In this document: piece by piece, positions 11,064-45,259 of the stretch
Numbering within the stretch: position 1 is the first letter of the stretch
Layout of the letters: the number at the start of each line of letters is the position of its first letter
Source of the DNA: Actinomycetota bacterium
GTDB lineage: Bacteria > Actinomycetota > Coriobacteriia > Anaerosomatales > JAUXNU01
Assembly: GCA_030682655.1 (NCBI GenBank)
Contig: JAUXNU010000112.1
Span: forward strand, 2,175 to 66,174
Reading direction: 5' to 3'
Length of the DNA: 64,000 nucleotides
The notes under the pieces: model-generated
The model's database searches: none
The model's input: only the letters and a program-made list of their open reading frames with translations
Told to the model about the DNA's origin: nothing
Position numbers and translations under genes: made by a program

Positions 11064-11166
11064 GGTGCCTCCAGCGATTGCCTGATGGGCGGGGCTTAGT
11101 ATACTTGTCCGACGCGTCACTGTGGAACGCGTTGGCGCATGCAGCCACTTGGTCGCGGGAGGCCGG

Positions 11167-22274: not shown

Positions 22275-22281
22275 CGCGCGA

Positions 22282-24758: not shown

Positions 24759-24766
24759 GTAGCGCC

Positions 24767-25351: not shown

Positions 25352-25354
25352 CCC

Positions 25355-26682: not shown

Positions 26683-26686
26683 GTTC

Positions 26687-28552: not shown

Positions 28553-29998
28553 ATGGAACGCGAGTACATGACAACACGCGACATCGTCGGCCCGCTACTG
28601 CTGGTCGAGGACGTAGAAGGCGTCACTTACGGAGAGCTTGTCGAGCTCGACTTCCCGGACGGGACTCACTCGCTCGGGAACGTGCTCGAGGTGAACGGCG
28701 ACGTCGCTCTCGTGCAGGCGTTCCAGGGCACACAGGGCTCGAATCCGAGCGAGACAAAAGTGCGCTTCCTTGGCCGGGGCATGACGCTTGGCGTGTCGCG
28801 CGACATGCTGGGCCGCGTGTTCGACGGCCTCGGTCGCCCGCGCGATGGCGGCCCCGAGATCCTGCCCGACGTGCGGCTCTCGATCCACGGCGCGCCGATC
28901 AATCCGACCGCGCGAGACTTCCCTGACGACTTCATCCAGACAGGCGTCTCTTCGATCGACGGACTCAACCCGCTCGTGCGCGGGCAGAAGCTGCCGATCT
29001 TCTCGGCCTCGGGCCTTCCGCACAACCAGCTGGCGGCGCAGATCGCGCGCCAGGCAGCCGTTCTCCAGCGGTCCGACGACCCGACGAAAGTCGGTGCCAA
29101 GATGGAGGGCGAGTTCGCGGTCGTCTTTGCGGCCATGGGAATCACGTTCGAGGACGCCGACTTCTTCTCGAGCGAGCTGCGCAACACCGCGGCCATCGAG
29201 CGCGCGGTGCTCTTCCTGAACCTCGCGGACGACCCGGCCGTCGAGCGTATCGCGACCCCGCGCATGGCGCTCACCGCAGCCGAGTACCTCGCGTACGAGT
29301 GCGACATGCACGTGCTCGTCATTCTCACCGACATGACCTACTACTGCGAGGCGCTGCGGGAGGTCTCTGCCGCGCGCAAGGAGGTCCCCGGTCGTCGCGG
29401 GTATCCCGGCTATCTCTACACCGACCTCGCGACGCTGTATGAGCGTGCCGGCCGCATCAAGGGGCGCAAGGGCTCCATCACGCAGATCCCGATCCTGTCG
29501 ATGCCCGAGGACGACAAGACGCACCCCATCCCCGACCTGACCGGCTACATCACCGAGGGCCAGATCATCCTCGATCGCAACCTGCACCGCCGTGGCGTCT
29601 ACCCGCCGGTCGCAGTCCTGCCGTCGCTGTCTCGTCTCAAGCAGAAGGGCATCGGCCCGGGCAAGACGCGAGAGGACCACGCGGACCTCAGCAACCAGCT
29701 GTTTGGCGCCTACGCCCGTGGCATCCAGGCCAAGGAGCTCGCAATCATCCTCGGCGAAGCAGCTCTGTCCGAGTCGGACAAGGCGTTCGTTGCGTTCGCC
29801 GATGCATTCGAAGATCGCTTCATCCGGCAGGGCGAGCACGAGGAGCGCACCGTCGAGGAGACCCTTGCGATCGGCTGGGAGCTCGTTGCGCTGCTGCCTC
29901 GCAGCGAAGTCAAGCGCATCAAGGACGAGTTCGTCGAGAAGTACCTGCCCGTCGACGAGCTGGCAGAAGAGCCGGTCGCCGAGGAGGTCAGTGCGTGA
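28553..29998 (+). CDS. ntpB: V/A-type ATPase subunit B
   Basis: [69 protein letters not shown]. Confidence 0.95.
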
Positions 29999-30186
29999 CG
30001 CTGGCGCCCTGGATAGCGCTCTTTGTGCTCGTTGCGCTGCTCGGCGCGATGCAGGTCGTAGGCGTGCGCGCTCTCGAAGCGTGGGGCGTGCAGCCCTCGC
30101 GGGCAGTCGTGGCGCTTCGTGCGGTGAACTTCATGGCCGTGGTCGTGGTGGTCGCATACGCCGTGTGGTGGAAGGTGGCGAGGTAG
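29995..30186 (+). CDS. Hypothetical 63-aa two-TM protein wedged between ntpB and ntpD
   Basis: GTG overlaps the ntpB stop (GTGA). Its stop lies 1 nt before the ntpD start. Two hydrophobic helices ([31 protein letters not shown]). Could still be a chance ORF in GC-rich DNA. Confidence 0.4.
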
Positions 30187-30187
30187 C

Positions 30188-30832
30188 GTGGCGCAGTTGC
30201 GGGTGAACCCCAACCGCATGGAGCTGCTCAAGCTCAGGCGTCGCCGCGCCGTGGCCGAACGAGGACACAAGCTGCTCAAAGACAAGCTTGACGAGCTCAT
30301 GAAGGAGTTCCTTGGCAGGATCGGCCAGAGCCGCAAGGTGCGCGGAGCGGTCGAACGCGAGCTGGCGGGCGCTTACGGCATGTTCGCCATCGCGCGCGCA
30401 GAGGCAGGACGGGCGAACCTGGCGCAGGCGCTTTCCGCCGGACAGCCGGTGGGTCTTGTCGATGTCGTCGAGCGCAATGTCATGAGTGTTCGCATCCCGC
30501 ACTACACTCCGCTTCCCATGCCGCAGCCGGGCGGCTACTCGCTCGTCGCGACGCCGGTGGTGCTCGACGCAGCGCTCGATTCTTTGGCCGAGGTCGCGCC
30601 AAGGCTGATCGATCTTGCCGAGCGCGAGAAGGCGATCGAACTGCTCGCCGCCGAGATCGAGACCACGCGCCGACGCGTGAACGCGCTCGAGCACGTTCTG
30701 ATCCCGCAGCTGGCCGAGGCCATCCGGGACATCGGCATGAAGCTGGAAGAGGCGGAGCGAGGCAACCTGACGCGGCTGATGAAGGTCAAGGACATCATCG
30801 CTGCCCAGGAGGCCCGTGGGGCAGACCGATAG
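30188..30832 (+). CDS. ntpD: V/A-type ATPase subunit D (central stalk)
   Basis: VNPNRMELLKLRRRRAVAERGHKLLKDKLDEL and a C-terminal coiled coil. Confidence 0.9.
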   Translation: MAQLRVNPNRMELLKLRRRRAVAERGHKLLKDKLDELMKEFLGRIGQSRKVRGAVERELAGAYGMFAIARAEAGRANLAQALSAGQPVGLVDVVERNVMSVRIPHYTPLPMPQPGGYSLVATPVVLDAALDSLAEVAPRLIDLAEREKAIELLAAEIETTRRRVNALEHVLIPQLAEAIRDIGMKLEEAERGNLTRLMKVKDIIAAQEARGADR

Positions 30833-31047
30833 GCTCTCGTACGCTTGCACGCCGGAGCCGTCGGGCCGCCAAGGAAGGGGATCCATGTCACGCCGCCTCA
30901 CTGTGACGAAGGCCACAACGCAAAGAGCTAAAGCCCCCCTCTGAGCTGGCCGATAAAGCTATTGTCAGGATTCAAATGAGCCTCCTGACTTAGGGATTCG
31001 CTCCTCACCGTGGCGCCCCTCCACCAATCGGAGCTGATTCCGTCTCC

Positions 31048-31078
31048 GGACCCCGGCGTGTGAAGATCGCCGGGGTCC
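31048..31078. terminator. Perfect 11-bp GC hairpin between convergent operons
   Basis: GGACCCCGGCG-TGTGAAGAT-CGCCGGGGTCC. Lies between the ntpD end (30832) and the end of the cNMP-binding gene (31109). No U tract. Confidence 0.4.
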
Positions 31079-31108
31079 GAGCATTTCCCCTGGGCACGCG
31101 GAGTTGCC

Positions 31109-31600
31109 CTACGGCGTCGAGGCGAATGACTCGGGGTGGCGAAGCGCGCTCACCTCTGCGAAGACGTCCTCGGCCAGCTTCTCCCGAACGAGGAGCCGCT
31201 CGATGAGCGCGTCGGTCTTGCGAATCCGCTTGCTCATCCGCTCAAGGAACTGGAGTGCGATCTCCGGGTTCGCACGGATCCCCGCTTCGAGATCCTTGCG
31301 GGATACCTTCCGGAGCTGGACGTCGCCGACTGCGGTTGCAGTCGGCGAGCGACGCGCCACATCAAACAGCGCCATTTCGCCGAAGAACGCGCCGGGGCCG
31401 ATCTCGGCCAGCGGAGTCACGATCTCTTCCGATTCGTGCGTCGCCGTGCGCGTACGCCGGATTCGCCCGGATTCGACAACGAACATGGAGCGGCCCGGTT
31501 CGTTCTCGGAGAAGACAACAGCGCCGTCTTCGAACTGCTTGATTCGTCCGACATCCTCAAACACTACTCTGTCCACTCGTACTCGGCTTCCGTACCCCAA
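31109..31600 (-). CDS. Stand-alone cyclic-nucleotide-binding (cNMP/CAP-effector) domain protein
   Basis: FGEMALFDVARRSPTATAVG phosphate-binding cassette with the beta-roll upstream. No HTH or other output domain. TTG start preceded by GAGAGGAAG, 45 nt after the MrpA-like gene. Confidence 0.8.
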   Translation of the reverse strand: MGYGSRVRVDRVVFEDVGRIKQFEDGAVVFSENEPGRSMFVVESGRIRRTRTATHESEEIVTPLAEIGPGAFFGEMALFDVARRSPTATAVGDVQLRKVSRKDLEAGIRANPEIALQFLERMSKRIRKTDALIERLLVREKLAEDVFAEVSALRHPESFASTP

Positions 31601-31645
31601 GCAGGCGCTTCCTCTCGTCGGCAGTCGTGGCCGAAGAAGGCGCGC

Positions 31646-34396
31646 CTAGGTGATTCCCGCCATCGCCGTCAGGACGAAGACGAGCAGCATCGCAATCGCA
31701 ATCCCGACGTTGAGACCGATGTCACGCACATAGCGCTGGATGGCGAGGCGGGCGCTCGCGAGGCGCCTGTTGTCCATGTGATCGTCGATTATCCAGGGGA
31801 TGCGCTCCTGGATGATCGACTCGATCACGGTGGTGGCCGTGTCCGAGAGCCAGCCTCCCGCTCTCTCGATCTTGGTGAGGCCTCCTGCGCGGTAGGCCGA
31901 TACGACTTCTTGGCTTGGAACGGCCTGGCCGACACGGTGCCCGAGCCGGGCTGCCGCGAGCGATCCGGCCTGGTAGGCGGATGCGACTTCCTCTCTTGGA
32001 ACGGCCTGGCCGACACGGTGCCCGAGCCGGGCTGCCGCTTGCGATGCACTCCACGAAGGAATCGATTCGCGAATGAGCACATCGAATCTCTCTTTGGCCA
32101 TGATGTCGTTCATCTCGCGAGCTATCTCGCGCAGGATGTTTTCGCCTCTCATGCGCCGTGGCGCGAGTTCGAGAGCGAGGTCGGTGACGGGTTGCCGCCA
32201 CTTCTCCACGCGGATCATGGATTCGTTGAGTGCTACCCTGAGAGGCTCGATCCGACCGGTTCGGGCGAGCTCCGCCACCGCGTCGATTCGCTCGTCGAAC
32301 AGCCGGGTGGCCATGTACATGGCGGTATCGCGGACCGAGTTCACGTACTGCTGCCGAAGCGCCTCGTCCATGTCGCGGGAGTTCTCGGCCTTCATGACGG
32401 CGGCATCGACGGCATGCCGCACGGTCTCGTGACGCTCACGCTCGATGATGACGTACGCGGTCTCGATGAACTGCTGGTGTCGGAGTCCCGGTGCCCCTGT
32501 TCCGAGCGTCACGATCACCCGCCGCCAGTTTCGCTGGATTCGCACGCCATAGCGGGAGGTCATACGCAGCGTGCGTATGATTGCCCTTGACATGAAGCCC
32601 GTGTATGCCTCGTAGGACTGGTTGGCCGAAACGCAGAAGGCCAGGAATGCCCTTGCCGTGCGGCGATACCAGTAGTCGATGCTGAGCCACGCCGGGAAGT
32701 GCGCGTGGAAGAGCCCGAAGCGTACACCGACGATCACCACCGTTGTGCCTATTGCGAACGCGATGAGCACAGCCATCAGGTCCCCGCCAGCGAACAGCAC
32801 GAAGTGGTCCAGAATCTCAGAGTGCAGGCCCCATGTGTGCAGGCCGGGTGATATCACGCCCTTCAGCATCAGGTTCGGTGCGAGACCGAGGGCTACGATC
32901 GGTACCGCCAGTGCGCCCATCGCAACGAGCATCCGAGCAGGGGCGTCCTTCACGCCGGGGAACTCCTGCTTCGGTTTGCCAAGGAAGACGAACACGATGA
33001 GCTTGATGAACGAGGCCGCCGTTCCTCCGCAGGTGAGCACGAAGATCTTCTCGGCGACGGACAGCGCAGTAGCCTGTCTAGCCAGCCCCGTGGAGTGGGC
33101 CGCGTGCGCGAGGTGGGAGGCATGCTCGACCGCCTCGACGAGCCCATGGTGCAGGAGGGTCTTGCTGACGAAACCGTTGAACAGCGGCACGCCTGTGATG
33201 CCGCATGCCGCAATCAGCGTAAACAGAAACGTCAGCGGCATCTTTTTCCACAGTCCGCCGAGCTTGTACATGTTGAGCTCGTGCGTGCGGAAGTACACTG
33301 CTCCCACGCCAAGGAAGAGGCAGGCCTTGAATAGCGCGTGGTTGACGATGTGGTACAGCCCGCCAGCGAAGCCCATGGCCCCGTGCGCCCCAAGGTACCC
33401 GGCGACACCGATGCCGGTGATGATGAAGCCCATCTGACTCACGCTGTGATAGGCGAGCATCCGCTTCGCGTTCTCTTGCAGAAGCGCGAGCACCACACCG
33501 ATGAACATCGTCGCGATGCCGATCCAGATGACGGCGAAGCCCAGCTGCGTCGTGAAGTGCCACAGCTCCTCGGCCACCTCTTCCATGATCGGAGGTCGGA
33601 ACAGTGCTGTCACCACGCGGAAGATGCCGTACGCCCCTGCCTTGATCATGATGCCGGAGAGCAGAGCGCTGGCCGGAGAGGGGGCCACCGGATGCGCGTC
33701 AGGAAGCCAGACATGCACCGGCACGATACCCGCTTTGACTCCGAAACCTACGATCATGAGGATCGCAGCGGCCCACATGAGCAGCTCTTGCCCCTCCGCC
33801 ATGGGCACGGGTCCCAGATGGCCGGTCGAGCCGAGCCCGAATGTGATGAAGATGCCAGCGACCAGGGCGAACCCGCCCATCACCGTCATCCAGAGGTACT
33901 TGGTCGAGGCCTTCAGGGCCTCCGGCGTCTCGGTGTGGACCACGAGCCAGTACGCGAGAAGGCCCAGGGCCTCGAAGAACAGATAGAGAGAGATGAGATC
34001 GCCGGCGAGCACCACGCCCATGTTTGCCCCGAGTACGGCCAGGTTGACCGTGAAGTACCGGTCGCGCTTCTGCTCGTGCTGCATGTAGGAGCCGGCATAA
34101 AGAGTCGATGCCATCCAGACGAACGACGTGAACAGCGCGAAGAACATCCCGAACGAGTCGACCTCGAAGGTGATGTGCCCGAGCAGCACCGGGATCTTCG
34201 AGCCGACTATGTGGTGCTCCGCCACAAGCGGTATGAGTGCTACCGAGCCAAGGAAGGTGAGGCCCGTGACGACAACGGCGAACCAGTTCCGCAGCGGCTC
34301 AGAGCGACGACCGAGAGGTCGCGCCAGCAGCGCCGCCGCGAACGGCAACGCGACAATCGCCGCCGGAATCGCGCTGTATGTCACGTGGCTCTCCAC
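31646..34396 (-). CDS. MrpA/NuoL-like antiporter subunit (916 aa) with atypical long C-terminal extension
   Basis: Proton-pump core motifs (LYLFFEALGL, VHVWLPDAHPVAPSPASALLSG, HIVNHALFKACLFL). GTG 34396 follows AGGAGG. Residues from about 560 to 916 are non-TM helical sequence ending in a single TM helix. Confidence 0.8.
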   Translation of the reverse strand: MESHVTYSAIPAAIVALPFAAALLARPLGRRSEPLRNWFAVVVTGLTFLGSVALIPLVAEHHIVGSKIPVLLGHITFEVDSFGMFFALFTSFVWMASTLYAGSYMQHEQKRDRYFTVNLAVLGANMGVVLAGDLISLYLFFEALGLLAYWLVVHTETPEALKASTKYLWMTVMGGFALVAGIFITFGLGSTGHLGPVPMAEGQELLMWAAAILMIVGFGVKAGIVPVHVWLPDAHPVAPSPASALLSGIMIKAGAYGIFRVVTALFRPPIMEEVAEELWHFTTQLGFAVIWIGIATMFIGVVLALLQENAKRMLAYHSVSQMGFIITGIGVAGYLGAHGAMGFAGGLYHIVNHALFKACLFLGVGAVYFRTHELNMYKLGGLWKKMPLTFLFTLIAACGITGVPLFNGFVSKTLLHHGLVEAVEHASHLAHAAHSTGLARQATALSVAEKIFVLTCGGTAASFIKLIVFVFLGKPKQEFPGVKDAPARMLVAMGALAVPIVALGLAPNLMLKGVISPGLHTWGLHSEILDHFVLFAGGDLMAVLIAFAIGTTVVIVGVRFGLFHAHFPAWLSIDYWYRRTARAFLAFCVSANQSYEAYTGFMSRAIIRTLRMTSRYGVRIQRNWRRVIVTLGTGAPGLRHQQFIETAYVIIERERHETVRHAVDAAVMKAENSRDMDEALRQQYVNSVRDTAMYMATRLFDERIDAVAELARTGRIEPLRVALNESMIRVEKWRQPVTDLALELAPRRMRGENILREIAREMNDIMAKERFDVLIRESIPSWSASQAAARLGHRVGQAVPREEVASAYQAGSLAAARLGHRVGQAVPSQEVVSAYRAGGLTKIERAGGWLSDTATTVIESIIQERIPWIIDDHMDNRRLASARLAIQRYVRDIGLNVGIAIAMLLVFVLTAMAGIT
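31891..32052. repeat. In-frame tandem duplication, 2 x 81 bp, inside the MrpA-like C-terminal extension
   Basis: Units 31891-31971 and 31972-32052 share a 41-nt identical core (31917-31957 = 31998-32038). They encode AARLGHRVGQAVPREEVASAYQAGSLA / AARLGHRVGQAVPSQEVVSAYRAGGLT. Confidence 0.9.
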
Positions 34397-34414
34397 AAGA
34401 TCCTCCTTTGGGGC

Positions 34415-35905
34415 CTACGGCAATGTCTCGGCGGCGAGCTTTGCGAGCGAGAGCGGTAGTCCGGGAGCCCACGCGAAGATTCCAAGGACGACGGTGAGTG
34501 CGGCTCCGGCCAGTAGCGGACCGAGCATCGTCCAGGGGGCTTCGAGTCGGGTCGTAGCCTCTGGGAGATCGCGCACGATCGGCGACGGCTCCTTCAGGTA
34601 GGCGGCGTAGACGATGGGAAGCAGGTACACGGCGGCAAGCAATGCCCCGCCAAGGAGCACCGCCAAGTACCAGGGCTTTTCCGCGTCGAGGATGCCGAGG
34701 CCCAGATACCACTTGCTTGTGAAGCCGGAGAGCGGCGGCGTGCCGATCATCGAGAGAGCTGTGAGAGTGAAGACGCCCATAGTGATGGGATGCTGCTTGG
34801 CGATTCCGGCCATCTCGCTCACCTTGTGAACGCCCGCCCGCTTTATCACGATGCCGACGCAGAAGAACAGCGTCGCCTTCATGAACGCGTGGTTGGCGAT
34901 GTGGACCAAAGCGCCGGTCGTTGCGTTGACGCTCAGAAGCGATGCGCCGAAGATCACGTATCCCATTTGGCTGATGGTGGAGTAGGCGAGTCGACGTTTG
35001 AGGTTGTCCTGGGCTACGGCGAGCACGGCGGCGGTGATAATGGTCGCTGCGGCGATCAACCCCAGCGGGACCGCCACGCCGAGCTCCCTTAGCAGCGGGA
35101 TGCCGAAGACGTTGTGAATCACCCGCAGGATGCCGAAGCTGCCGGCTGCCACCATGATTCCGGACAGGACCGCTGAGAAAGGTGCCGGAGCGGCGGGATG
35201 TGCGTCGGGTACCCACCCGTGCAACGGCATGAGGGCCGCCTTGACGCCGAAGCCCGCGATGAAGCACCAGAAGACGGCGAGCAATGCCGTCCTGCTGGAC
35301 TTGGATGCGGCGAAGAACGCGGTGCGTCCGAACTCCTGCGAGTCGGCGAGGAAGTACGTTCCCATGATGGCGAGCAGCACGAAACCGCTGCCGATGATGA
35401 TGTAGGTGATGTACTTCGTGCCGGCCGCCATCGCCTCGGGCGTCTGCTCGTGGACTACGAGCGGATAGGTGAGTATCGAGAACAGCTCGTAGAAGACCAG
35501 GAACGACAGCAGGTTGCCGGCAAAGGCGACACCAAAGGTCCAGGAAAGCGCCAGCATGAGGAAGGAGAAGTAGCGGTTCTTGCGGTGCCCGTCTGCCATG
35601 TACCCGATCGAGAAGACTACCGCCAGCAGCCATAGCACGCTCGCCGTGATCGCGAAGAGCACGCCGAGGGGGTCGACACGGAGGTGCATCCAGATGGTAG
35701 GCGTCATCTGGAACATGCGCATCCCGTATGTCTCGCCCTCGAGCGCTCCCGGTATGAGCAACGCCACGAGTCCGGTCACGAGTGTGACCACGAAGACCAG
35801 GCCGACCGCGCGAGCACGCTCCGAAATCCTCGACAGCGGAACGACGAGAGCTGCGCCGAGCATCGGCAAGAACACCACTGCGGGGAGTACTGCTGAGGGA
35901 TTCAT
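34415..35905 (-). CDS. mrpD: MrpD/NuoN-like antiporter subunit (copy 3)
   Basis: FYELFSILTY, HGWVPDAHPAAPAPFSAVLSG, HIANHAFMKATLFF. 14 predicted TM helices. Confidence 0.85.
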   Translation of the reverse strand: MNPSAVLPAVVFLPMLGAALVVPLSRISERARAVGLVFVVTLVTGLVALLIPGALEGETYGMRMFQMTPTIWMHLRVDPLGVLFAITASVLWLLAVVFSIGYMADGHRKNRYFSFLMLALSWTFGVAFAGNLLSFLVFYELFSILTYPLVVHEQTPEAMAAGTKYITYIIIGSGFVLLAIMGTYFLADSQEFGRTAFFAASKSSRTALLAVFWCFIAGFGVKAALMPLHGWVPDAHPAAPAPFSAVLSGIMVAAGSFGILRVIHNVFGIPLLRELGVAVPLGLIAAATIITAAVLAVAQDNLKRRLAYSTISQMGYVIFGASLLSVNATTGALVHIANHAFMKATLFFCVGIVIKRAGVHKVSEMAGIAKQHPITMGVFTLTALSMIGTPPLSGFTSKWYLGLGILDAEKPWYLAVLLGGALLAAVYLLPIVYAAYLKEPSPIVRDLPEATTRLEAPWTMLGPLLAGAALTVVLGIFAWAPGLPLSLAKLAAETLP

Positions 35906-35930
35906 GAGCCCACCACCCCGATCACTCCTC

Positions 35931-37406
35931 TCACAATCCGAAGAAGTACTCTACTGCCGTTCGAGCCAGGGACAGAGGCATCCCCGGGACCTCGGCGAAG
36001 CTGCCAAGCAGAATCACGTACACGGCGCAGATGAGCGTTGGGAGGAGCAACATCCAGTGGGCCTCCTTGATATGGAGGCTCGTACCGGGCGGTACCTTGA
36101 AGAACGCCATGTAGATGATCGGAAGCCAGTACGCGGCGTTGAGTATCGAACTCGTAATCAGCACGACAACGAATACCCAGCCGCCCATCTCCATCGCACC
36201 GAGAGACAGGTACCACTTGGTGATGAACCCTGCCGTGAGAGGCACGCCGATGAAGCCGAGGGCGGCGACGGTGAATGCTCCCATGGTAAACGGCATCTGA
36301 TACCCGATGCCGGCGAACTCGTGGATGTTCGTGCGTCCGGTTGTTTTCTGGATGGCCCCGGCAACGAAGAACATGGTGATCTTCATGAACGCCTGGTTAG
36401 CGATGTGGACGATTGCGCCAAGCGCTGCCAGGGGGGTTAGCAGCGCGGCGCCAAGGATGATGTAGGAGAGCTGGCTGATTGTCGAATATGCGAGGCGTCG
36501 CTTGAAGTTGTCCTGGGTCAGCGCGATCGCGGACGCCATGACGATCGTGAACGATGCGGCGGCGGCAAGCCACACGCCGATACCGAGCTCCCTCAGCAGC
36601 TCCACGCCAAAGACGCAGAACACGACGCGCAGTATGCCATAGACCCCGGCCTTCACAACGGCCACTGCGTGCAGAAGGGCGCTAACCGGCGCCGGAGCGA
36701 CCATTGCCGACGGCAGCCATCCGTGCAGCGGCATGATCGCGGCCTTCACGCCGAACCCGATGATGAACGCCGCGAACAGGAGTGTGAGCCCCTGTGTGCC
36801 CGCCGAGATGTCGAGGATTCCTCGCCCGCTAAGCGTGAGCGTTCCCGCCCACTGGTAGGTGACAGCGGTGGCGAGCAGCACGAACACACCGCCGATGAGC
36901 GTGTATGCGAGGTACTTGCGGCCAGCCGCCATCGCCTCCGGAGTCTCCTCGTGCACGACCAGTGGATACGTGCAGATTGTGAGCATCTCGTAGAAGAGGA
37001 ACAGTGTGAGGAGGTTCTCGGCAAACGCGATACCGACCGTGGTCGACACGCACAAGGCGAAGAAGCCGAAGAAGCGAGCCTGCTCGTGCTCATTCTTCAT
37101 ATAGCCGATTGCGTAGAGGGTCGTGATCAACCACAGCGTCGATGAGACGAGAGTGAAGAACATTGCGAGTGCATCGACCCTGAATGCTAGACCGATGCCA
37201 GGCGTGAACTCGACGAGCGAGTATCTGTAGACTGTGCCGGCCAGCACGCCTGGCAGCATCGAGAAGATGAGGACGAGCTTGACGGCCGCAGTACTCAGGC
37301 TCCAGAAAGCCCTCCAGAAGGGACGTGAACCACCGAAGAACATCAGAAGTCCGCACGCGAGTGATAGCGCCGGTGCGAGGAGCGGTCGAATATCCCATAC
37401 TTCCAT
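35931..37406 (-). CDS. mrpD: MrpD/NuoN-like antiporter subunit (copy 2)
   Basis: FYEMLTICTY, HGWLPSAMVAPAPVSALLHA, HIANQAFMKITMFF. Confidence 0.85.
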   Translation of the reverse strand: MEVWDIRPLLAPALSLACGLLMFFGGSRPFWRAFWSLSTAAVKLVLIFSMLPGVLAGTVYRYSLVEFTPGIGLAFRVDALAMFFTLVSSTLWLITTLYAIGYMKNEHEQARFFGFFALCVSTTVGIAFAENLLTLFLFYEMLTICTYPLVVHEETPEAMAAGRKYLAYTLIGGVFVLLATAVTYQWAGTLTLSGRGILDISAGTQGLTLLFAAFIIGFGVKAAIMPLHGWLPSAMVAPAPVSALLHAVAVVKAGVYGILRVVFCVFGVELLRELGIGVWLAAAASFTIVMASAIALTQDNFKRRLAYSTISQLSYIILGAALLTPLAALGAIVHIANQAFMKITMFFVAGAIQKTTGRTNIHEFAGIGYQMPFTMGAFTVAALGFIGVPLTAGFITKWYLSLGAMEMGGWVFVVVLITSSILNAAYWLPIIYMAFFKVPPGTSLHIKEAHWMLLLPTLICAVYVILLGSFAEVPGMPLSLARTAVEYFFGL

Positions 37407-37407
37407 G

Positions 37408-38892
37408 TCAACCCCCGATGGGCGCCAGCATGCTTCTTACGGCGGGCTCGATGAAACTGAGCGGGATTCTGCCGAAGATCCCCATGACGAGACAGAGAAT
37501 CGCAAGCACGACGACGGGCACAAGCATGGAGATGGGAGCCTCGCCCACCTCCAGGATCTCCGGGTGCGTTGGGGCCATGAAGTAGAACGCATTCACCATC
37601 CGGATGTAGTACACGAAGATCAGCAGCGCACCGAAGAGCAGGAGGATCGCGAACAAGAGCCTCCCTGCCTCAATGGCGCCCAGGGCGATGTACCACTTGC
37701 AGAGGAAGCCTGCCGTAGGCGGGATACCGACGATCGATATCGCGCCGATCGCGATTGCCGCCGTTGTGATCGGCATGGCTTTGCCGATTCCCCGGAGATC
37801 TCGAAGATTGCGATAGCCGGTCTGGTGGATCAGAGCTCCTGCCCCAAGGAAGAGTGTCGCCTTGATCAGCGCGTGGTTGAAGATGTGCACCGATGCACCC
37901 ATGATTCCGAACGGTGAAGCGAGACCCAGTCCCATGAAGATGTAACCGATGTTGGAGATTGTCGAGTAGGCGAGCATCATCTTGATGTCCTCTTGGACCA
38001 TCGCGAACAGCGCGCCCGTGACGATTGAGATCGCGCCTAGCCACATGAGCACGGTATTGAGCGATGAGAGGTCGAACAACTGAGCCGCATACAGGATCTG
38101 GAACATCCGCAACATGCCGAGCACGCCGATCTTGACCACGAGGCCCGACAGGATGGCACTCACCGGTCCGGGGGCGATCGAGTGTGCGTCGGGCAACCAG
38201 ATATGGAGGGGGAACACCGCCGCTTTCATTGAGAATCCCAGCGTGAGCGCGGCTACCGCAACGGCCGCGGGGAAGGGCGCGACACCCCCAAGTCTCGTTG
38301 CCAGGTCCGTCATGTTCAGCGTACCGGTCAGGGAGTACAGCAGGCCGATGGCGAGCAGGACACACAGCGACGAGATTGCCCCCATGATCAGGTACTTGAA
38401 GCCGGCGAGTTCCGCGATGCGCTCACCCGTTATCGCAACCAGCGCGTAGCCGGCGAGCGAGAGGACCTCGAGGAACACGAACATATTGAAGATGTCGCCG
38501 GTGACCGCGAAGCCGTTCATTCCTCCAAGGCAGAGCAGCACCAGCGCGTAGTAGTACGGAATCCTCTGCTCGGGGATGGCGTGTTTCGCATAAGCCAAGG
38601 AGAACAGGAGCGCGAGCCAGCCAACGAGGCAGATGACCCCGATGGAGACGCTGAACTCATCGAACCGCAGCTCGATGCCTAGCGGCGGTGCCCAGCCGCC
38701 CATGTGATACGAGAAGGATCCCTGCGTCGACACACGGTAGGAGAGTACGACCGCCGCCAGGGAGACGATGCTGAACACGAACAGCGCCCAGTATCCTGCG
38801 AGCTGGGTCCGATATCTCCCGACTATGGGAGTAAGAGCGGCGCCGACGAGAGGGGTGATGATGAGTACCACGGGCCACTGGCCGCCACCCAT
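37408..38892 (-). CDS. mrpD: MrpD/NuoN-like antiporter subunit (copy 1)
   Basis: FLEVLSLAGY, HIWLPDAHSIAPGPVSAILSG, HIFNHALIKATLFL. Confidence 0.85.
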   Translation of the reverse strand: MGGGQWPVVLIITPLVGAALTPIVGRYRTQLAGYWALFVFSIVSLAAVVLSYRVSTQGSFSYHMGGWAPPLGIELRFDEFSVSIGVICLVGWLALLFSLAYAKHAIPEQRIPYYYALVLLCLGGMNGFAVTGDIFNMFVFLEVLSLAGYALVAITGERIAELAGFKYLIMGAISSLCVLLAIGLLYSLTGTLNMTDLATRLGGVAPFPAAVAVAALTLGFSMKAAVFPLHIWLPDAHSIAPGPVSAILSGLVVKIGVLGMLRMFQILYAAQLFDLSSLNTVLMWLGAISIVTGALFAMVQEDIKMMLAYSTISNIGYIFMGLGLASPFGIMGASVHIFNHALIKATLFLGAGALIHQTGYRNLRDLRGIGKAMPITTAAIAIGAISIVGIPPTAGFLCKWYIALGAIEAGRLLFAILLLFGALLIFVYYIRMVNAFYFMAPTHPEILEVGEAPISMLVPVVVLAILCLVMGIFGRIPLSFIEPAVRSMLAPIGG

Positions 38893-38894
38893 CG

Positions 38895-39245
38895 CTACTC
38901 AACCCCCCACAGGTCGTCGGACTCGATCGTCCCGTACTGCTCGTAGATACGGATGATCAGACTGAGTGCGAGCGCTGTGGTGCTGAATGCGACAACGATG
39001 CCCGTGAGGATGAGGCCCTGGGGAAGCGGATTGGCGAAGGGCGGAGCCGCGCCGTGGCCCATGATCGGAGCATCACCGTCGGTCACGATCCCCGCCGCCA
39101 TGACGAACGCGAAGACCGCAGTCTCGATGATGTTGAGCCCGAGGAGCTTCTTGATGAGGTTGCCCTTGGCGATGATCGCGTAGAGCCCGATAAGGAACAG
39201 CAGGACTGACGCGACGTAGTCGATATTGGCCCACAGTTCCTTCAT
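38895..39245 (-). CDS. mrpC: MrpC/MnhC (NuoK-like) subunit
   Basis: 116 aa, 3 TM. LIKKLLGLNIIETAVFAF and LILTGIVVAFSTTALALSLI. ATGA overlap with mrpB. Confidence 0.85.
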   Translation of the reverse strand: MKELWANIDYVASVLLFLIGLYAIIAKGNLIKKLLGLNIIETAVFAFVMAAGIVTDGDAPIMGHGAAPPFANPLPQGLILTGIVVAFSTTALALSLIIRIYEQYGTIESDDLWGVE

Positions 39246-39958
39246 CCGTTGCTCCCCTCCATGGTCCAGTAGACGGACGCGACGATCGCCGCGCCTCCGA
39301 TTGCAATGCCGGCCTCGATGACCGTGAGGAAGGGAACCCGGAGGAACAGCCACCGGCCATCGATGGGATACGAAAGGTACTCGCCAAGGAGGGCCATTCC
39401 GGCGACCCCGACCACGGCGAACAGGAGCACGGCGGCGGGCTGCAACCACGGGCGGATCCGTTCGGGCAGCAGCTTCTGCGCCTGCTTGCTCCCCTGGACG
39501 AGGCTCGTGGCGATCAGAAGCGCGCCGATGATCGTGCCTCCCTGGAAACCGCCGCCCGGCGTGGAGTGGCCGTATATGACCATGTAGACCGAGAAGACCA
39601 CGATGAATGGCGCCAGCACGCGGACGATGAATCGGGTGACGGGGCTAACCGGGGTTGCGGGCTCGGCGGGCTGTTCCTGCTTGGCGGTACGCGGAATCAG
39701 GAGCACGCCGAAGACGGCCATCATGGCCGTGAAGATGACGGTGACCTCGCCGTCGGTGTCGTAGCCTCTGTAGTTGAGGATGATGGCGGTCACGATGTTC
39801 TCGCATCCGGTCTCCTCCGGGCCCTCTTCGAGGTAGTGCGGGACGATGTGCGTGTAGGTGGGGTTCTCAACCGAGCCGATCGGCGGAAGCAGGGACACGG
39901 CATACAGAAGGGGTACGGCCGCCAGTATCAGCAGCGCCAGGGTGAGTGCGCGTCTCAT
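39242..39958 (-). CDS. mrpB: MrpB/MnhB-domain subunit
   Basis: NIVTAIILNYRGYDTDGEVTVIF and GGGFQGG motifs of the MnhB domain. ATGA overlap with the upstream gene. The ORF-track extension to 40411 is out of context. Confidence 0.8.
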   Translation of the reverse strand: MRRALTLALLILAAVPLLYAVSLLPPIGSVENPTYTHIVPHYLEEGPEETGCENIVTAIILNYRGYDTDGEVTVIFTAMMAVFGVLLIPRTAKQEQPAEPATPVSPVTRFIVRVLAPFIVVFSVYMVIYGHSTPGGGFQGGTIIGALLIATSLVQGSKQAQKLLPERIRPWLQPAAVLLFAVVGVAGMALLGEYLSYPIDGRWLFLRVPFLTVIEAGIAIGGAAIVASVYWTMEGSNG

Positions 39959-40197
39959 CGCTCTCGCCTCGTTGTCCGGGAGACGGCAATGAGGAACAGC
40001 ACCGTCGTGACTCCGGCGCCCACCGCAGCTTCGGTAAGAGCGACGTCGGGCGAACCTCTGAGCTGCCACAGAAGACACATGATGAGGCTGTAGGTCGAGA
40101 AGATGATCGCTGCGGCGAGCAGGTCCTTCGTTCGGATGACCGCCAGTGCGCATGCGATGAGAAGGCCGTAGAGGACCAGGTCGAACGCGCGACTCAT
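39955..40197 (-). CDS. DUF4040 (MbhD / MrpA-C-terminal-like) small membrane subunit
   Basis: 80 aa, SPDVALTEAAVGAGV signature, 3 TM. Confidence 0.75.
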   Translation of the reverse strand: MSRAFDLVLYGLLIACALAVIRTKDLLAAAIIFSTYSLIMCLLWQLRGSPDVALTEAAVGAGVTTVLFLIAVSRTTRRER

Positions 40198-40529
40198 GTC
40201 TGGTCACCGTCCGCCCTTGGGCTGCGCGTCCAGGGGGCAAGCCCCGATCTGAAGGCCGCACGAGCAAGGGCATGGCCTGCAGTGGGGCTCGTGAGGAGCA
40301 CGAACGCCGCAATCGCCAGGATCTTGAAGGCATCGGGTTTGAGTCCCGTGTACACGGCGAGGGCGACCAGGATCGATCCGGCTCCGAGCGTGTCGCATTT
40401 GGTCGCCGCATGAGTCCTTGAGTAGAAATCGGGCAGGCGCAACATGCCGATCGTTCCGACGAGGAAGAAGAAGGCCCCGATGCAGGCGAACACGATGGTT
40501 ATCGCCATTACGATGGGATGTACGTTCAC
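40194..40529 (-). CDS. mrpG: MrpG/MnhG subunit
   Basis: GTIGMLRLPDFYSRTHAATKCDTLG signature. GTG overlaps the mrpF stop (GTGA). Confidence 0.8.
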   Translation of the reverse strand: MNVHPIVMAITIVFACIGAFFFLVGTIGMLRLPDFYSRTHAATKCDTLGAGSILVALAVYTGLKPDAFKILAIAAFVLLTSPTAGHALARAAFRSGLAPWTRSPRADGDQT

Positions 40530-40804
40530 TGCTGCCACTCCTCCTCGAATCGCCCGGTCTCGAGGAATCTCGAGGCAGCGAGCGTTGCCACGAGATTCAG
40601 GAGGGCGTAGACGAAAGCAACATCGATATACAGACCGCGATCGAAGACGAAGGCCAGCAGAACGAGTACGACAAGCGTCTTCGTTCCCACGATGTTCACG
40701 GCGAGGATCCGGTCGACGGCAGTGGGGCCGCGATACGCCCGGTAGAGACAAATGAAGGCATTCACGAGCAGGAAGATAGCCGTTCCCCAGAAGAAGACGT
40801 CCAT
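40526..40804 (-). CDS. mrpF: MrpF/MnhF subunit
   Basis: 92 aa, LYRAYRGPTAVDRILAVN signature. Confidence 0.85.
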   Translation of the reverse strand: MDVFFWGTAIFLLVNAFICLYRAYRGPTAVDRILAVNIVGTKTLVVLVLLAFVFDRGLYIDVAFVYALLNLVATLAASRFLETGRFEEEWQQ

Positions 40805-40808
40805 GCCA

Positions 40809-41285
40809 CTACTCCTCGAAGACCTTGGCGATTATGTGGTCGAGCTTGCGTGAGGCGATGTCGTCGGCGAACTCGCGATCGAGGCAGTGGATGAAGAAGA
40901 CGGAGCCGTCCACGTCTACCGTCAGCGTGCCCGGCGTGAGAGTGATCGAGTTTGCCAGCGCGACTCCGGAGACCGGTCGCTTGAGCGCTGACAGATGCTC
41001 GATGATCAGGGGGTCTATCGGCAGCCTGGGATCAAGCACCTTCTCGGCGACGTAGATGTTGGCCCAGACTATCTCCTTCACCAGGAACCCTACATAGACG
41101 AAGAAGCGTCCCGCTTGACGTAGCGTGAGGTAGGGCGCGTCGTCCTCGGTCCAGAGAGTTCGTTCTGTGAACCAGGCCACGAGCACCGACAGGACGAGGC
41201 CGGTAGCCAGTCCGCTTGGGTTGAATGAGCCGAGTATGAGAACCCAGAAGCCGAACAAGACGATGGAGAGCTGGAGCACGGCCAT
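40809..41285 (-). CDS. mrpE: MrpE/MnhE subunit
   Basis: LANSITLTPGTLTVDVD signature. The ATG shares its A with the TGA of the upstream GGDEF-like gene. Confidence 0.8.
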   Translation of the reverse strand: MAVLQLSIVLFGFWVLILGSFNPSGLATGLVLSVLVAWFTERTLWTEDDAPYLTLRQAGRFFVYVGFLVKEIVWANIYVAEKVLDPRLPIDPLIIEHLSALKRPVSGVALANSITLTPGTLTVDVDGSVFFIHCLDREFADDIASRKLDHIIAKVFEE

Positions 41286-42151
41286 CAGACGCTGCCTTCT
41301 AGCACGCGCTCGACGTGCGGGGCTGCCCCGGTTGCGATCTTGCCCGCCTTCGCCTCGCTCAGACTGGACTGCGCCAGCGCGAGCAGGGATTCGGCGTCGC
41401 ACGCTGGCTCCGGGCAGGTGGCAATGCCCGTGCTTATCGTCTGTCGAGTGACGGGTTCGAGCTCGTCGCCCTCGAACTCGGTACCGGCGACGAGGTTCTC
41501 GAGACGCCGAGCGATCAGATGCGCTTCGTCTTGGGTGCAATGGGGGCAGATGAGCGCGAACACGCCGTCGGCATGTCGGGCAAGCACGTCGGTGCTGCGG
41601 ACCGAGATCTTGGTTACCTCGGCCAGATGCTCAAGGAGCAAGGCGGCCCGATGGCTGCCAAACGTTTCCTTGAATACTTTGATGTCATCCAGTTCGATCA
41701 GCAGAAGCGCCATGCTCCCGCCGTAGCGAGCTCTCCGCCGGGTCTCCTCCTCGAGGCGCGTGGCGAAGTAGCTTTCCGAGTACAACCCGGTGAGCGGGTC
41801 GTACACGGACGTTCTCTCGAGCTCCTGGGCGTGCACTCCCTGTCTCTGGGTGAGGATCCCGACGATCAGGCCCGTCACCAAGAACACAGCCAGCCCGACG
41901 GCGGACTCCGTGACCACATCGGTGGTCAAGCGGGAGGCTGCTGCGAGCGCGTGGAATCCGAGGAGAGCTGCCGTGATGGCGGTCATCAGAATCGCGCCGC
42001 TGGCATGGTAGGTGAGAGCTGCGACTATGACGGGCACGCCGTAGAGGGGCCACAGCCAATGGAACTCACCGGTGAACTGAACGAGGAGTGCGACGAATAT
42101 CGTCGATAGTGCGATAAACAGCAGTCGGTGGAGATGAATTCGTGAAGCCAT
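41285..42151 (-). CDS. Membrane protein with degenerate GGDEF domain (I-site retained, active site lost)
   Basis: 4 N-terminal TM helices, then DPLTGLYSESYF...LLIELDDIKVFKETFG...RSTDVLARHADGVFALI. The start is taken at ATG 42151 (G-run RBS); the ORF track starts at TTG 42175. Confidence 0.75.
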   Translation of the reverse strand: MASRIHLHRLLFIALSTIFVALLVQFTGEFHWLWPLYGVPVIVAALTYHASGAILMTAITAALLGFHALAAASRLTTDVVTESAVGLAVFLVTGLIVGILTQRQGVHAQELERTSVYDPLTGLYSESYFATRLEEETRRRARYGGSMALLLIELDDIKVFKETFGSHRAALLLEHLAEVTKISVRSTDVLARHADGVFALICPHCTQDEAHLIARRLENLVAGTEFEGDELEPVTRQTISTGIATCPEPACDAESLLALAQSSLSEAKAGKIATGAAPHVERVLEGSV

Positions 42152-42205
42152 CACTGCCCCCCCCAATACAAACAAAGCAGTACGGCGGGGGCGTCCACAA
42201 AGCCG

Positions 42206-42211
42206 ATTATA
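42206..42211 (-). promoter_or_regulatory. Candidate -10 box (TATAAT, minus strand) for the GGDEF-mrp operon
   Basis: Perfect TATAAT in a GC-rich intergenic region about 55 nt upstream of ATG 42151. No clear -35. Confidence 0.3.
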
Positions 42212-42356
42212 TACCCTCGGTGGCGCAGAGTGCAGTTAATCGTTGTTCATGCACAGTTGGCGTTTCATGCGGGCTGTAGTGCGTGTTTGGAGGTTGTCAG
42301 TCGTCACCGTAACCACTCTCCGGGCGCCTACGGATGGGTCGTGCGTGCTTGCCGCC

Positions 42357-43694
42357 CTACTCGGTCTGACCGGTGAACGCGAACGACGTGAGCAGCAGGG
42401 CGGGGACGTAGCTGCCGCTTAGCTCGCTGCCGAAGAGTCGGCGCTCGCGGGTTGCCCCCTGGACGCCCGCAAGCGCCTCGACCATGGGTTGGGTGAAGCG
42501 CAGGTTCTTGAGCGGGCGCGTCAGCCTCCCGTTCTCGATCAGGAACGTCCCGTCGCGTGTCATGCCCGTTAGCGTGACGGGCACGGGATCCTCCACGTTG
42601 GCGTAGTGGAATCGCGTCACATATACGCCATGTTCTACAGCTCCAACGAGATCGTCGATCGTGGCATCGCCTGCCGAGAGTTCGAGGTTCATGGGCATGG
42701 GGCCGTGTGGGTTGGGCGCGGGAAGAGCGTGCCCGGTGTTGTGCGTGCCGGTTCTGGCCGCCCAGTATGAGTCGGTGACGGGCTTCCCTATGACACCGCG
42801 GTCCACGAGGGTGACCTGTCTGCGGGGCACGCCCTCGAAATCGAACGGGAGACCCAGGGCGTGCGTCGCCAGCGCGTCGTCGACGATCGTCACGCTCTCC
42901 GACATCAGGCGCTGACCGGAAGTGCCACTCATGAACGAGCGCCCTTCCTCCACGGCCTTGGCGGAGAACCCCACGTAGCCAAGGAACTCCAGGATGTCGG
43001 CGACCGCTTCCGCGGCCAGCACGACGGTGTAGGCGCCGGGCTCGAGATCGCCGGGATCCGCCGAACGCTCCGCAAGCGTTGCCGCTTCGTCGCCGAGAGC
43101 CGCGGGTGCGAGGCCGGAAGAATCCGGGCCCAGGTACGACGCCCAGCCTGCGCCGCCATCACTGCCCATGGAAAGCACGGTCGCGCGGACGCCTGTGGCC
43201 GTGCCGGCGACATCCGTTCCGCGCGTGTTTGCGACCGCGATCGCATGCTCGTTCGCAGAGACCGTACCCGCGGCGACGAGCGAACGCGACGAGGATTGGT
43301 CTATGACGGAACGGGCAGCCAGTGCGCGCGCTTCGGCGTCGAAGGCGTCAACGACTGCGCTTGCAGCTGCAGGGGCCACTTCGCTGGGTCCCGGCAGCCC
43401 CGGGAAGCTTGCGTCCTCGGGTGCCGCCGCAGCCGCGCGGGCGGCGGCGGCGCAGCACGCGAGAAGTCCGTCATCATCGACGCGGCTCGTCGAGGCGACA
43501 CCGATGCGTGTGCCAAGGACCGCGCGGACGGAGACAGAGACGCCGTTCTCGGCCACGTTCTGATGGATGTGGTTGTTCGCGAATCGCGTGAGTGCGGTGT
43601 TGCTGGCCGAGACGAGTGCCTCGGCCTCGTCCGCCGACGTGAGTTCGAGCGCGCGCAGTGCCAGCCCCCGTGCGAGGCTCTCTTGAGCGGTCAT
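42357..43694 (-). CDS. pmbA: TldE/PmbA metalloprotease subunit
   Basis: PmbA_TldD family C-terminal block (HNTGHALP...GVYVTRFHY..VTLTGMTRDGTFLIENG). ATGA overlap with the tldD stop. Confidence 0.85.
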   Translation of the reverse strand: MTAQESLARGLALRALELTSADEAEALVSASNTALTRFANNHIHQNVAENGVSVSVRAVLGTRIGVASTSRVDDDGLLACCAAAARAAAAAPEDASFPGLPGPSEVAPAAASAVVDAFDAEARALAARSVIDQSSSRSLVAAGTVSANEHAIAVANTRGTDVAGTATGVRATVLSMGSDGGAGWASYLGPDSSGLAPAALGDEAATLAERSADPGDLEPGAYTVVLAAEAVADILEFLGYVGFSAKAVEEGRSFMSGTSGQRLMSESVTIVDDALATHALGLPFDFEGVPRRQVTLVDRGVIGKPVTDSYWAARTGTHNTGHALPAPNPHGPMPMNLELSAGDATIDDLVGAVEHGVYVTRFHYANVEDPVPVTLTGMTRDGTFLIENGRLTRPLKNLRFTQPMVEALAGVQGATRERRLFGSELSGSYVPALLLTSFAFTGQTE

Positions 43695-45151: not shown

Positions 45152-45259
45152 GACCTCCGTCGGTCGATTCGCGTTGGCATGGATGTACCCGTCGACAGCG
45201 CGTGCCAAAAACGATTCGCTAGCGTGTGTGCGAAGCCGGCTGGAGACGACGTGCCGCGT

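Follow-up and report, generated by a model that had tools for sequence, protein, structure and literature searches.

A gene cluster for a predicted four-channel Mrp antiporter in Actinomycetota begins with the gene of a degenerate GGDEF-like protein

What could a gene for a GGDEF-like membrane protein be doing at the head of a cluster that encodes a cation/proton antiporter, and a gene for a cyclic nucleotide-binding protein at its tail? This question is raised by a 64,000-nucleotide stretch of DNA from the metagenome-assembled genome of an uncultured Actinomycetota bacterium of the class Coriobacteriia (assembly GCA_030682655.1, contig JAUXNU010000112.1, positions 2,175 to 66,174), which is referred to here as the window. 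On its minus strand, 12 densely packed open reading frames (ORFs) run from position 42151 to 31109 and encode, in order, the GGDEF-like protein, MrpE, MrpF, MrpG, MbhD, a fused MbhE/MnhB, MrpC, four antiporter-like subunits called D1 to D4, and the cyclic nucleotide monophosphate (cNMP)-binding protein. The best explanation that we can offer, with the chances for and against it evenly balanced, is that these genes form one operon for an enlarged, four-channel group 3 Mrp that carries an I-site receptor subunit for cyclic di-GMP (c-di-GMP), and to which a cyclic AMP (cAMP) input has been added in the window's clade.

The initial annotation described a single, unbroken minus-strand train with tight start/stop junctions, and both were recovered in the ORF map. 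All 12 ORFs are in place, and stop and start codons overlap as TGATG at 41283-41287, as GTGA at 40526-40529, and as ATGA at 40194-40197, 39955-39958 and 39242-39245. The other junctions leave gaps of 4, 2, 1, 25, 18 and 45 nucleotides (nt). The gene identities that had been assigned also hold, as the Pfam profiles match with E-values far beyond chance (Table 1).

The hallmarks of the Mrp, or CPA3, family that Pfam detects in the cluster are MrpE, MrpF and MrpG occurring together, MrpB-type domains and MrpC. Every core product is recognised as Mrp-type by NCBIfam, and since the curated cut-off is reached by MrpG only (models NF009314 and TIGR01300), the cluster belongs to a divergent Mrp subfamily. 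It is set apart from the canonical groups 1 and 2 in that MrpA is not one polypeptide of transmembrane (TM) helices 1-21 and in that the antiporter-like subunits number four, not two. The equivalent of MrpA TM17-19 is MbhD, as given in a published table of subunit correspondence (PMC8415708). The lack of a fused mrpA, the irregular gene order and the presence of several mrpD genes agree with the definition of group 3 Mrp (PMC8415708, PMC5703873), and the Pfam order, E-F-G-MbhD-B-C-D-D-D-D', is the EFG-first, Mbh-like arrangement with four antiporter-like subunits that had been described at the outset.

Complexes of the MBH, MBX and MBS type were considered as well. Neither an MbhM/NuoH-like connector nor hydrogenase genes (including the NiFe-type MbhJKLN) nor NuoB, NuoC or NuoD had a Pfam match in the cluster or among about 36 longer ORFs scanned elsewhere in the window, and this separates the 12 genes from those complexes. 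The remainder of the window consists of housekeeping genes, as judged by Pfam on these ORFs, which are mostly the longer ones. As no redox module is present among the scanned ORFs, the cluster is a stand-alone membrane module, which is how the initial annotation had seen it. By its gene content, then, it is a stand-alone group 3 Mrp cation/proton antiporter with Mbh-type order and four proton-channel subunits, for which antiport activity is predicted.

The four antiporter-like subunits were compared with solved structures and with each other. For D1, the best relatives in the PDB are MbhH (6cfw_H, E-value 1.7e-78), then MbsH and then MrpD (7qru_D), and the alignment shows that it retains the Glu of TM5 and the Lys residues of TM7, TM8, TM11 and TM12. 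Of these residues, all four subunits retain the Glu of TM5 and the Lys of TM7, TM11 and TM12, by which functional antiporter-like subunits are defined; E142, K223, K344 and K399 (D1 numbering) are invariant among them. D4 also matches MbhH best (5.5e-59), followed by MrpA (7qru_A, 1.3e-40), and its alignment with a second MrpA structure (6z16_A) extends up to residue 591. The description of D4 as an MrpA/NuoL-like protein of 916 amino acids (aa) is therefore right with respect to the TM1-16 core of MrpA. It is not a complete MrpA, as it carries a large extra arm and as the MrpB-like domain at the C-terminus of MrpA is here the separate MbhD gene.

The arm of D4 is a cytoplasmic helical extension of approximately 330 residues that ends in a TM anchor. 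In the AlphaFold2 model, the antiporter core is followed by a helix of 61 residues (573-633), then by three shorter ones of about 35 residues apiece (approximately 638-780), a helical linker of low confidence and a TM helix at 893-915. The predicted local distance difference test score (pLDDT) is 80.7 overall and 80.1 within residues 560-916, and reaches 93-98 for the three shorter helices in a model of the fragment. We read these three helices as an antiparallel bundle. Searching the PDB with the arm in Foldseek returned generic helical bundles only (E >= 0.07), and no solved fold matched. In the model, the core, long amphipathic helix and TM anchor have the layout of NuoL and of MrpA TM15-HL-TM16, at far greater length, and the arm would run back along D3, D2 and D1. 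In complex I variants with an extra antiporter-like subunit, the lateral helix of NuoL is reportedly lengthened to span it, which parallels the D4 arm. Homologs of D4 with the full extension are mostly 860-940 aa among the 120 matches listed, with identities down to 43%. The arm aligns end to end in actinobacterial and gammaproteobacterial homologs, to about 40% identity, and the archaeal matches are partial. A tandem duplication within the low-confidence linker (Table 1) is common only to the closest 916-aa ortholog, P0003, in the family alignment, and is recent.

The core is not confined to the window. A scan with one genome per species gave 80 loci, the ORFs of which were matched to the window proteins. 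The order E-F-G-MbhD-B-C-D1-D2-D3-D4 was found in about 50 metagenome-assembled genomes of the Coriobacteriia/Actinomycetota type and, in addition, in haloalkaliphilic Gammaproteobacteria labelled Thioalkalivibrio, Wenzhouxiangellaceae and Halomonas; across Actinomycetota and Gammaproteobacteria, the positional order D1-D2-D3-D4 is kept in about 60 loci. Methanocellales, Methanosarcinales and Hydrothermarchaeales have the core as well, with four antiporter-like genes ending in D4, the middle two of which do not correspond one-to-one to D2 and D3. The sample names of several of the core-bearing genomes refer to soda-lake sediments, mud volcanoes, groundwater and springs. A ten-gene, four-subunit stand-alone Mrp was not found described in the literature. 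Some gammaproteobacterial loci (L053, L059, L062, L073 and L080) have two mrp clusters in tandem, the second of which directly follows the first, is more divergent and includes a D4-like gene (E-F-G-MbhD-B-C-D...).

The protein encoded by the first gene consists of four N-terminal hydrophobic helices and a C-terminal GGDEF domain, and Pfam identifies no other output domain in it. When aligned with WspR, it has ADGVF in place of GGEEF and FKETFGSHRAA in place of YNDTFGHVAGD, and the NRR substrate loop is gone. Thus, each of the features of an active diguanylate cyclase, namely the GG[DE]EF signature, the substrate Asn/Asp and the GH..GD motif, has been lost. The active-site motif is degenerate in 48 of 48 orthologs, so that the protein was correctly called degenerate in the first place. 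Judged by these losses, it cannot make c-di-GMP.

The I-site is found where it would be expected. The sequence RSTD (R185-S-T-D188) pairs with RSSD at the I-site of WspR and lies five residues before ADGVF, while R142, R185 and D188 align with R198, R242 and D245 of WspR. Here, R142 corresponds to R198, which we take to be the third arginine of the I-site. Across the 48 orthologs, the residues that are 100% invariant are R142, G165, R185, D188 and F226-E-G-D229. The protein therefore has what is looked for in an I-site receptor: a GGDEF fold with RxxD five residues ahead of a degenerate motif, a membrane anchor, and a gene that stands in an operon with the putative target machine. It probably still binds c-di-GMP at this site. 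The FEGD motif (residues F226-D229, window positions 41466-41477), invariant in the 48 orthologs, is common to relatives with an intact GGEEF. We know of no role for FEGD in GGDEF domains or in c-di-GMP binding, and it may be a site of contact with a partner.

How tightly the gene is tied to mrp was assessed at 61 loci in which the region 5' of the mrpE of the primary cluster could be read; L059 and L080 were left out, as the mrpE there belongs to the second tandem cluster. A GGDEF-like ortholog lies directly 5' of mrpE and on the same strand in 46 of the 61, that is, in 46 of 49 actinobacterial, 0 of 8 gammaproteobacterial and 0 of 4 archaeal loci. A sensor gene of any kind upstream of mrpE was searched for in the gammaproteobacterial and archaeal loci and not found. 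The stop codon of the GGDEF-like gene overlaps the start of mrpE in 42 of the 46 (ATGA in 37, TGATG in 5). Further upstream, the genes in other loci differ from those of the window, and the TldD/PmbA gene that precedes the operon in the window is never there; since these neighbours change, the linkage is to mrp. In addition, all-pairs identities of the GGDEF-like protein and D1 over 45 loci are strongly correlated (Mantel test, Pearson r 0.85), a value reached by 0 of 2000 permutations. The GGDEF-like protein thus co-evolves with the pump genes, and its evolution is much faster than that of D1 (median identity 40% versus 71%). The Mantel test was used instead of the correlation of identities to the window protein alone, which gave rho 0.26 and p 0.11. 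The initial annotation had left it to a neighbourhood survey to establish whether the gene is conserved beside mrp, and it is. An earlier impression that the link is limited to a narrow clade came from a word-indexed search, in which 14 orthologs were followed by matches at 29% identity. This was rejected as an artefact of sensitivity, because orthologs of 35-44% identity precede mrpE in most Coriobacteriia.

The history of the last cistron is different. Its product is a cNMP-binding protein, as annotated, and the part of that annotation to be revised is the length of 163 aa. All orthologs begin with MFEDVG and the NCBI call for the window protein is 155 aa, so that GTG 31564 (151 aa) or GTG 31576 (155 aa) is a likelier start than TTG 31600. 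The phosphate-binding cassette, FGEMAL...R[ST]ATA, is invariant in 12 ortholog clusters. In the PDB, the best matches are Crp-family effector domains only, with alignments that end at the C-helix, at about residue 138. Pfam finds the cNMP barrel and no helix-turn-helix within the 151-163 aa, which distinguishes the protein from the DNA-binding regulators of the CRP/FNR family. The gene follows D4 in three genome loci and two metagenome loci, and the contig data suggest that 8 of the 12 ortholog clusters reside on contigs with D4 orthologs of at least about 71% identity. The gene that follows D4 in other Coriobacteriia is unrelated and varies from locus to locus (a PfkB-like kinase, a 4Fe-4S protein, an FKBP, a binding protein and others), and the idea of a conserved post-D4 gene outside the window's clade was rejected. 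Being confined to this narrow clade, the cNMP gene is a recent, clade-specific accessory and not a feature of the subtype, and its conservation beside mrp holds within this clade only. Co-transcription with D4 is plausible, as the spacer is 45-81 nt and without a hairpin.

How might such a machine work? MrpE, MrpF, MrpG and MrpB would make up the Na+-side module, and MbhD, MbhE and MrpC the connecting elements. D1 to D4, which we infer to be parts of one complex, would form a chain of proton channels that is clamped by the arm and TM anchor of D4, as helix HL does in NuoL and MrpA. With four proton channels per Na+ site, the H+:Na+ ratio would lie above the value of about 2 that is assumed for canonical Mrp, and exchange would be more electrogenic. 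This would suit alkaline, saline or energy-poor anoxic habitats and a Na+-based V/A-type ATPase. At alkaline pH, antiport has to be electrogenic, and an enlargement of the unit from two antiporter-like subunits to three or four has been discussed (PMC7419157). Given its translational coupling to mrpE, the GGDEF-like protein is most likely a part of the complex, and it would pass on its c-di-GMP occupancy and thereby switch or tune either transport or the assembly process. The CRP-type cNMP protein, which has no domain for DNA binding and whose gene was added behind D4 in the window's clade, probably brings a cAMP input. The activity or assembly of Mrp may thus be under the control of c-di-GMP or a cyclic mononucleotide. 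Taken by itself, the proposal of a direct coupling of c-di-GMP to a four-channel Mrp through a dedicated receptor subunit, with the CRP-like protein adding cAMP in one clade, is tentative, and we hold it with more doubt than confidence.

Several observations weigh against an Mrp with a c-di-GMP receptor subunit. No GGDEF-like gene accompanies the four-pump core in Gammaproteobacteria or archaea, nor in three of the actinobacterial loci, so that the sensor is dispensable for the machine and is not intrinsic to the four-channel design. RxxD is present in 102 of 111 non-family top matches among the GGDEF proteins most similar to the family. Neither a diguanylate cyclase nor a phosphodiesterase was seen in the 64-kb window, where the only other GGDEF match is the REC domain of a LytTR regulator. 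In the channels, D3 has Ala for the TM8 Lys and D2 has Met for the His of 'PDAH' in TM8, a loss of one TM8 residue in each. The remaining points come from the wider family of proteins with four TM helices (4-TM) and a GGDEF domain. A profile search of 1.8 billion representative proteins returned about 37 full-length members of 270-320 aa that rank ahead of ordinary cyclases; many have FEGD, and some also have an intact GGEEF together with FND..GH..GN substrate motifs. One with an intact site, P0265, is encoded 263 nt upstream of an mrpEFG-MbhD-B-C-D cluster, and another with intact GGEEF, P0271 (L063, 12778-13947, and L087), is convergent with and 3 nt from the end of D4. A third, P0274, has an intact site and no mrp neighbour, and the genes upstream of it (YjbQ, a deacetylase and DUF2085) are as at the P0265 locus. 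The ancestral link may then have been to a sensor that makes c-di-GMP and not to a receptor, and intact relatives beside mrp clusters complicate a pure receptor reading. L063 is a deep-branching locus of the Coriobacteriia without an upstream GGDEF-like gene, and in 1.6 Mb of related loci it holds the only canonical GGEEF protein. P0254, which has a degenerate site, is encoded 9 nt upstream of mrpE. The most economical reading of these cases is a history in three steps, in which an active membrane cyclase beside mrp became a member of the operon and then lost catalysis while it kept the I-site.

Three other explanations were weighed against the receptor. In one, the Mrp part is unchanged, whereas the GGDEF-like protein has a fixed role in structure or assembly and has lost nucleotide binding, with R142, RxxD and FEGD serving contacts between proteins or folding. 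It is translationally coupled to mrpE, much as a stoichiometric subunit would be, FEGD (226-229) is equally invariant, the catalytic residues are thoroughly eroded, and c-di-GMP enzymes were not seen in the window. Against this stands the fact that three of the invariant residues coincide exactly with the I-site of WspR in the alignment, in a protein whose surrounding sequence is about 40% conserved. Many GGDEF domains have no RxxD, which is thus not needed for the fold. Moreover, the known degenerate, operon-encoded TM-GGDEF proteins (YdaK, PMC9800504) are receptors, and a purely structural subunit appears unlikely to us. It is less probable still that the 4-TM GGDEF family is a membrane sensor of ion, pH or membrane status that sits near Mrp and signals outward instead of providing an input to it, with intact members making c-di-GMP and degenerate ones acting through partner proteins. 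The weak match of the N-terminal domain to the KdpD-type DUF4118 would fit such a sensor, as would P0265 (263-nt gap) and P0271 (convergent), intact proteins that adjoin mrp without a start/stop overlap. However, the window protein and the 46 operon-integrated orthologs cannot, by their sequences, make c-di-GMP and have no other output domain, and the 4-nt overlap with mrpE argues for co-assembly.

The last explanation concerns the channels and not the sensor: D1 to D4 might not all belong to one complex, being exchangeable subunits, or the cluster might specify the membrane arm of a redox enzyme, with the genes for its peripheral module at another locus. D2 and D3 are each short of one canonical TM8 residue, group 3 Mrp modules do occur inside MBH and MBS (PMC8415708), and only 64 kb of the genome are in view. 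On the other hand, the ten genes include no NuoH/MbhM-like connector, and no hydrogenase or Nuo match was found among the scanned ORFs of the window. In different bacterial phyla, D1 to D4 are orthologous and in the same order, and four antiporter-like genes are likewise present in the archaeal clusters. The arm of D4 is much longer than in two-subunit Mrp, as expected if it spans more subunits, and the gaps of 1-25 nt between the D genes fit co-expression. We regard this explanation as very improbable.

Among known systems, the Mrp of Pyrococcus furiosus, mrpEFGBB'CD (PF1147-53), shares the EFG-first order, the split MrpB-type genes and the passage from MrpC to MrpD, and it likewise has neither a fused MrpA nor a redox module (PMC8415708). 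It differs in having one antiporter-like subunit and no sensor genes, whereas there are four such subunits here, the last with an arm of about 330 aa. The canonical group 1/2 Mrp of Bacillus, Anoxybacillus and Dietzia (7qru, 6z16, 7d3u) have all Mrp domain types and the Glu/Lys channel residues in common with the window cluster. They have two antiporter-like subunits, the order mrpABCDEFG, a single MrpA and no second-messenger protein in the operon. Extra antiporter-like genes occur in the cyanobacterial mrpCD1D2EFGAB cluster (PMC5703873) and in 'Ca. Nitrospira alkalitolerans', where NuoM/NuoL-like genes follow mrpD (PMC7784846); both are from halo- or alkali-tolerant hosts. These clusters have fewer antiporter-like genes in another order, with no giant arm described and no GGDEF or cNMP genes. 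A chain of four antiporter-like subunits is also found in variants of complex I (Chadwick et al. 2018, as cited in PMC7419157), in that case in a redox-driven Nuo with a full peripheral arm, of which there is none here.

Degenerate GGDEF domains that act as I-site c-di-GMP receptors and are encoded with their target machine are known from Pseudomonas PelD and Listeria PssE. CpaA and KhtTU are cation/proton antiporters regulated by c-di-AMP, and hence a cyclic dinucleotide can control monovalent cation/H+ exchange. They differ from the window system in the messenger, in the receptor domain (RCK_C) and in the transporter, which is a single-gene CPA2 protein. The closest parallel to the GGDEF-like protein is YdaK of B. 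subtilis and B. velezensis, a membrane-anchored, degenerate GGDEF protein that has kept its I-site and whose gene shares an operon with those of the membrane machine under its control (PMC9800504). In YdaK, PelD and PssE the targets are exopolysaccharide synthases, whereas here the target would be an ion transporter and the protein has its own invariant FEGD. A search of the literature in full text for Mrp linked to c-di-GMP, or for degenerate GGDEF proteins with antiporters, found nothing relevant, and this accords with the remark in the initial annotation that no characterised Mrp system has second-messenger sensors in its operon. Mrp itself, multi-MrpD clusters, four-subunit complex I and degenerate-GGDEF receptors are thus already known. 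What is new is their combination, the conserved giant arm, and the robust conservation of a translationally coupled GGDEF-type subunit in an ion-transport operon.

The outputs known for c-di-GMP thus far lie mostly in motility, matrix production and development. If the receptor reading is true, action of c-di-GMP on a primary ion-homeostasis machine would be a new class of output. It would be the first case of cyclic-dinucleotide control of an ion-translocating machine of the complex I type, and in the little-studied anaerobic Actinomycetota it would connect signals on lifestyle with the bioenergetics of Na+ and H+. The ion-pumping arm of complex I descends from Mrp, and long-range communication between the modules of Mrp is a matter of debate. 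A redox-free complex of four modules with a long arm, the genes for which are conserved in bacteria and archaea of subsurface, saline and alkaline habitats, would be a natural model for long-range coupling between antiporter-like subunits, and would offer a clean test of whether more modules give a higher H+:Na+ ratio and whether the lateral arm lengthens as modules are added. In addition, the 4-TM GGDEF family presents a readable path from a cyclase beside mrp, to membership in the operon, to a dead enzyme with a site that binds its former product.

Table 1. Genes and other features of the window, with positions counted from its first nucleotide
Feature	Position	Strand	Details
Intergenic stretch, presumed promoter/leader	42152-42356	-	205 nt upstream of first cistron; ORF map
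GGDEF-like membrane protein, 288 aa	41285-42151	-	Pfam GGDEF 2.4e-24; weak DUF4118 (KdpD-like) 5.7e-4
mrpE, 158 aa	40809-41285	-	Pfam MNHE 8e-32; ATG overlaps GGDEF-like stop (TGATG)
mrpF, 92 aa	40526-40804	-	Pfam MrpF_PhaF 2.6e-15
mrpG, 111 aa	40194-40529	-	GTG start overlapping mrpF stop; Pfam PhaG_MnhG_YufB 8e-30
MbhD-like (DUF4040) subunit, 80 aa	39955-40197	-	Pfam MbhD 7.5e-23
Fused MbhE + MnhB (MrpB-type) subunit, 238 aa	39242-39958	-	Pfam MnhB 8e-22, MbhE 5e-9
mrpC (NuoK-like), 116 aa	38895-39245	-	Pfam Oxidored_q2 1.2e-24
D1, MrpD/MbhH-type, 494 aa	37408-38892	-	Proton_antipo_M 5e-66
D2, 491 aa	35931-37406	-	Proton_antipo_M 2e-56; best PDB match MbhH
D3, 496 aa	34415-35905	-	Proton_antipo_M 4e-58
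D4, terminal, 916 aa, MrpA(TM1-16)/NuoL-like core	31646-34396	-	Proton_antipo_M 3.5e-56
In-frame 81-nt tandem duplication in D4 (27 aa, 1.9 copies, 90% match)	31891-32045	-	Tandem Repeats Finder; low-confidence linker, residues ~785-836
Small cNMP-binding protein, longest ORF 163 aa	31109-31600	-	Pfam cNMP_binding 6e-20; CRP-type effector domain + C-helix
Candidate terminator, 12-bp GC-rich hairpin without U-tract	31047-31079	-	30 nt past cNMP stop, between convergent mrp and V/A-ATPase operons
V/A-type ATPase operon	21969-30832	+	I, K, E, C, F, A, B, small ORF, D
V/A-type ATPase K subunit	24270-24758	+	NtpK-like (2bl2, E 2e-25)
Two TldD/PmbA-family metallopeptidase genes	42357-45259	-	directly upstream of operon
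Gene pair like NfnAB/sulfide dehydrogenase/glutamate-synthase small chain	11086-13448	+	DHODB Fe-S binding/NAD-binding; Fer4_20 + Pyr_redox_2
REC-LytTR response regulator	13884-14726	+	
HisKA-domain-only ORF	47890-48678	-	

The ends of the mrp operon were scanned for control signals. An Rfam scan found no known riboswitch or other RNA in the stretch upstream of the first cistron, a sigma-70-like match was not found there, and the sigma-70 and terminator scans gave no more than the shuffled expectation. At the other end, the candidate terminator hairpin has a minimum free energy of -36.7 kcal/mol over a 74-nt stretch (z -2.95 versus shuffles).

Beyond this hairpin, the operon meets a complete V/A-type ATPase operon that converges on it. 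The sole solved relative of its K subunit is NtpK, the Na+ pump subunit of Enterococcus hirae, and the K subunit retains the PGTQG, QG and VETYA positions of NtpK. These positions presumably carry the Na+ ligands T64, Q65, Q110 and E139. From these residues, the neighbouring ATPase is probably Na+-coupled. The same tail-to-tail arrangement of a four-pump mrp cluster and a V/A-type ATPase operon is present in Methanocellales/Methanosarcinales (L071 and L072) and in other Coriobacteriia (L029, L047, L060, L081 and L082). Its recurrence hints at a functionally linked block, or at joint transfer, and the pairing fits a Na+/H+ cycle in which Mrp would interconvert both gradients.

The two TldD/PmbA-family metallopeptidase genes lie on the far side of the operon, and in L029, L047 and L060 a homolog of the first is located between the mrp cluster and the ATPase operon. 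The gene pair that resembles NfnAB, 18 kb from the mrp operon, encodes the sole redox enzyme that was noticed in the window. The REC-LytTR response regulator and the ORF with only a HisKA domain have no evident link to the operon.

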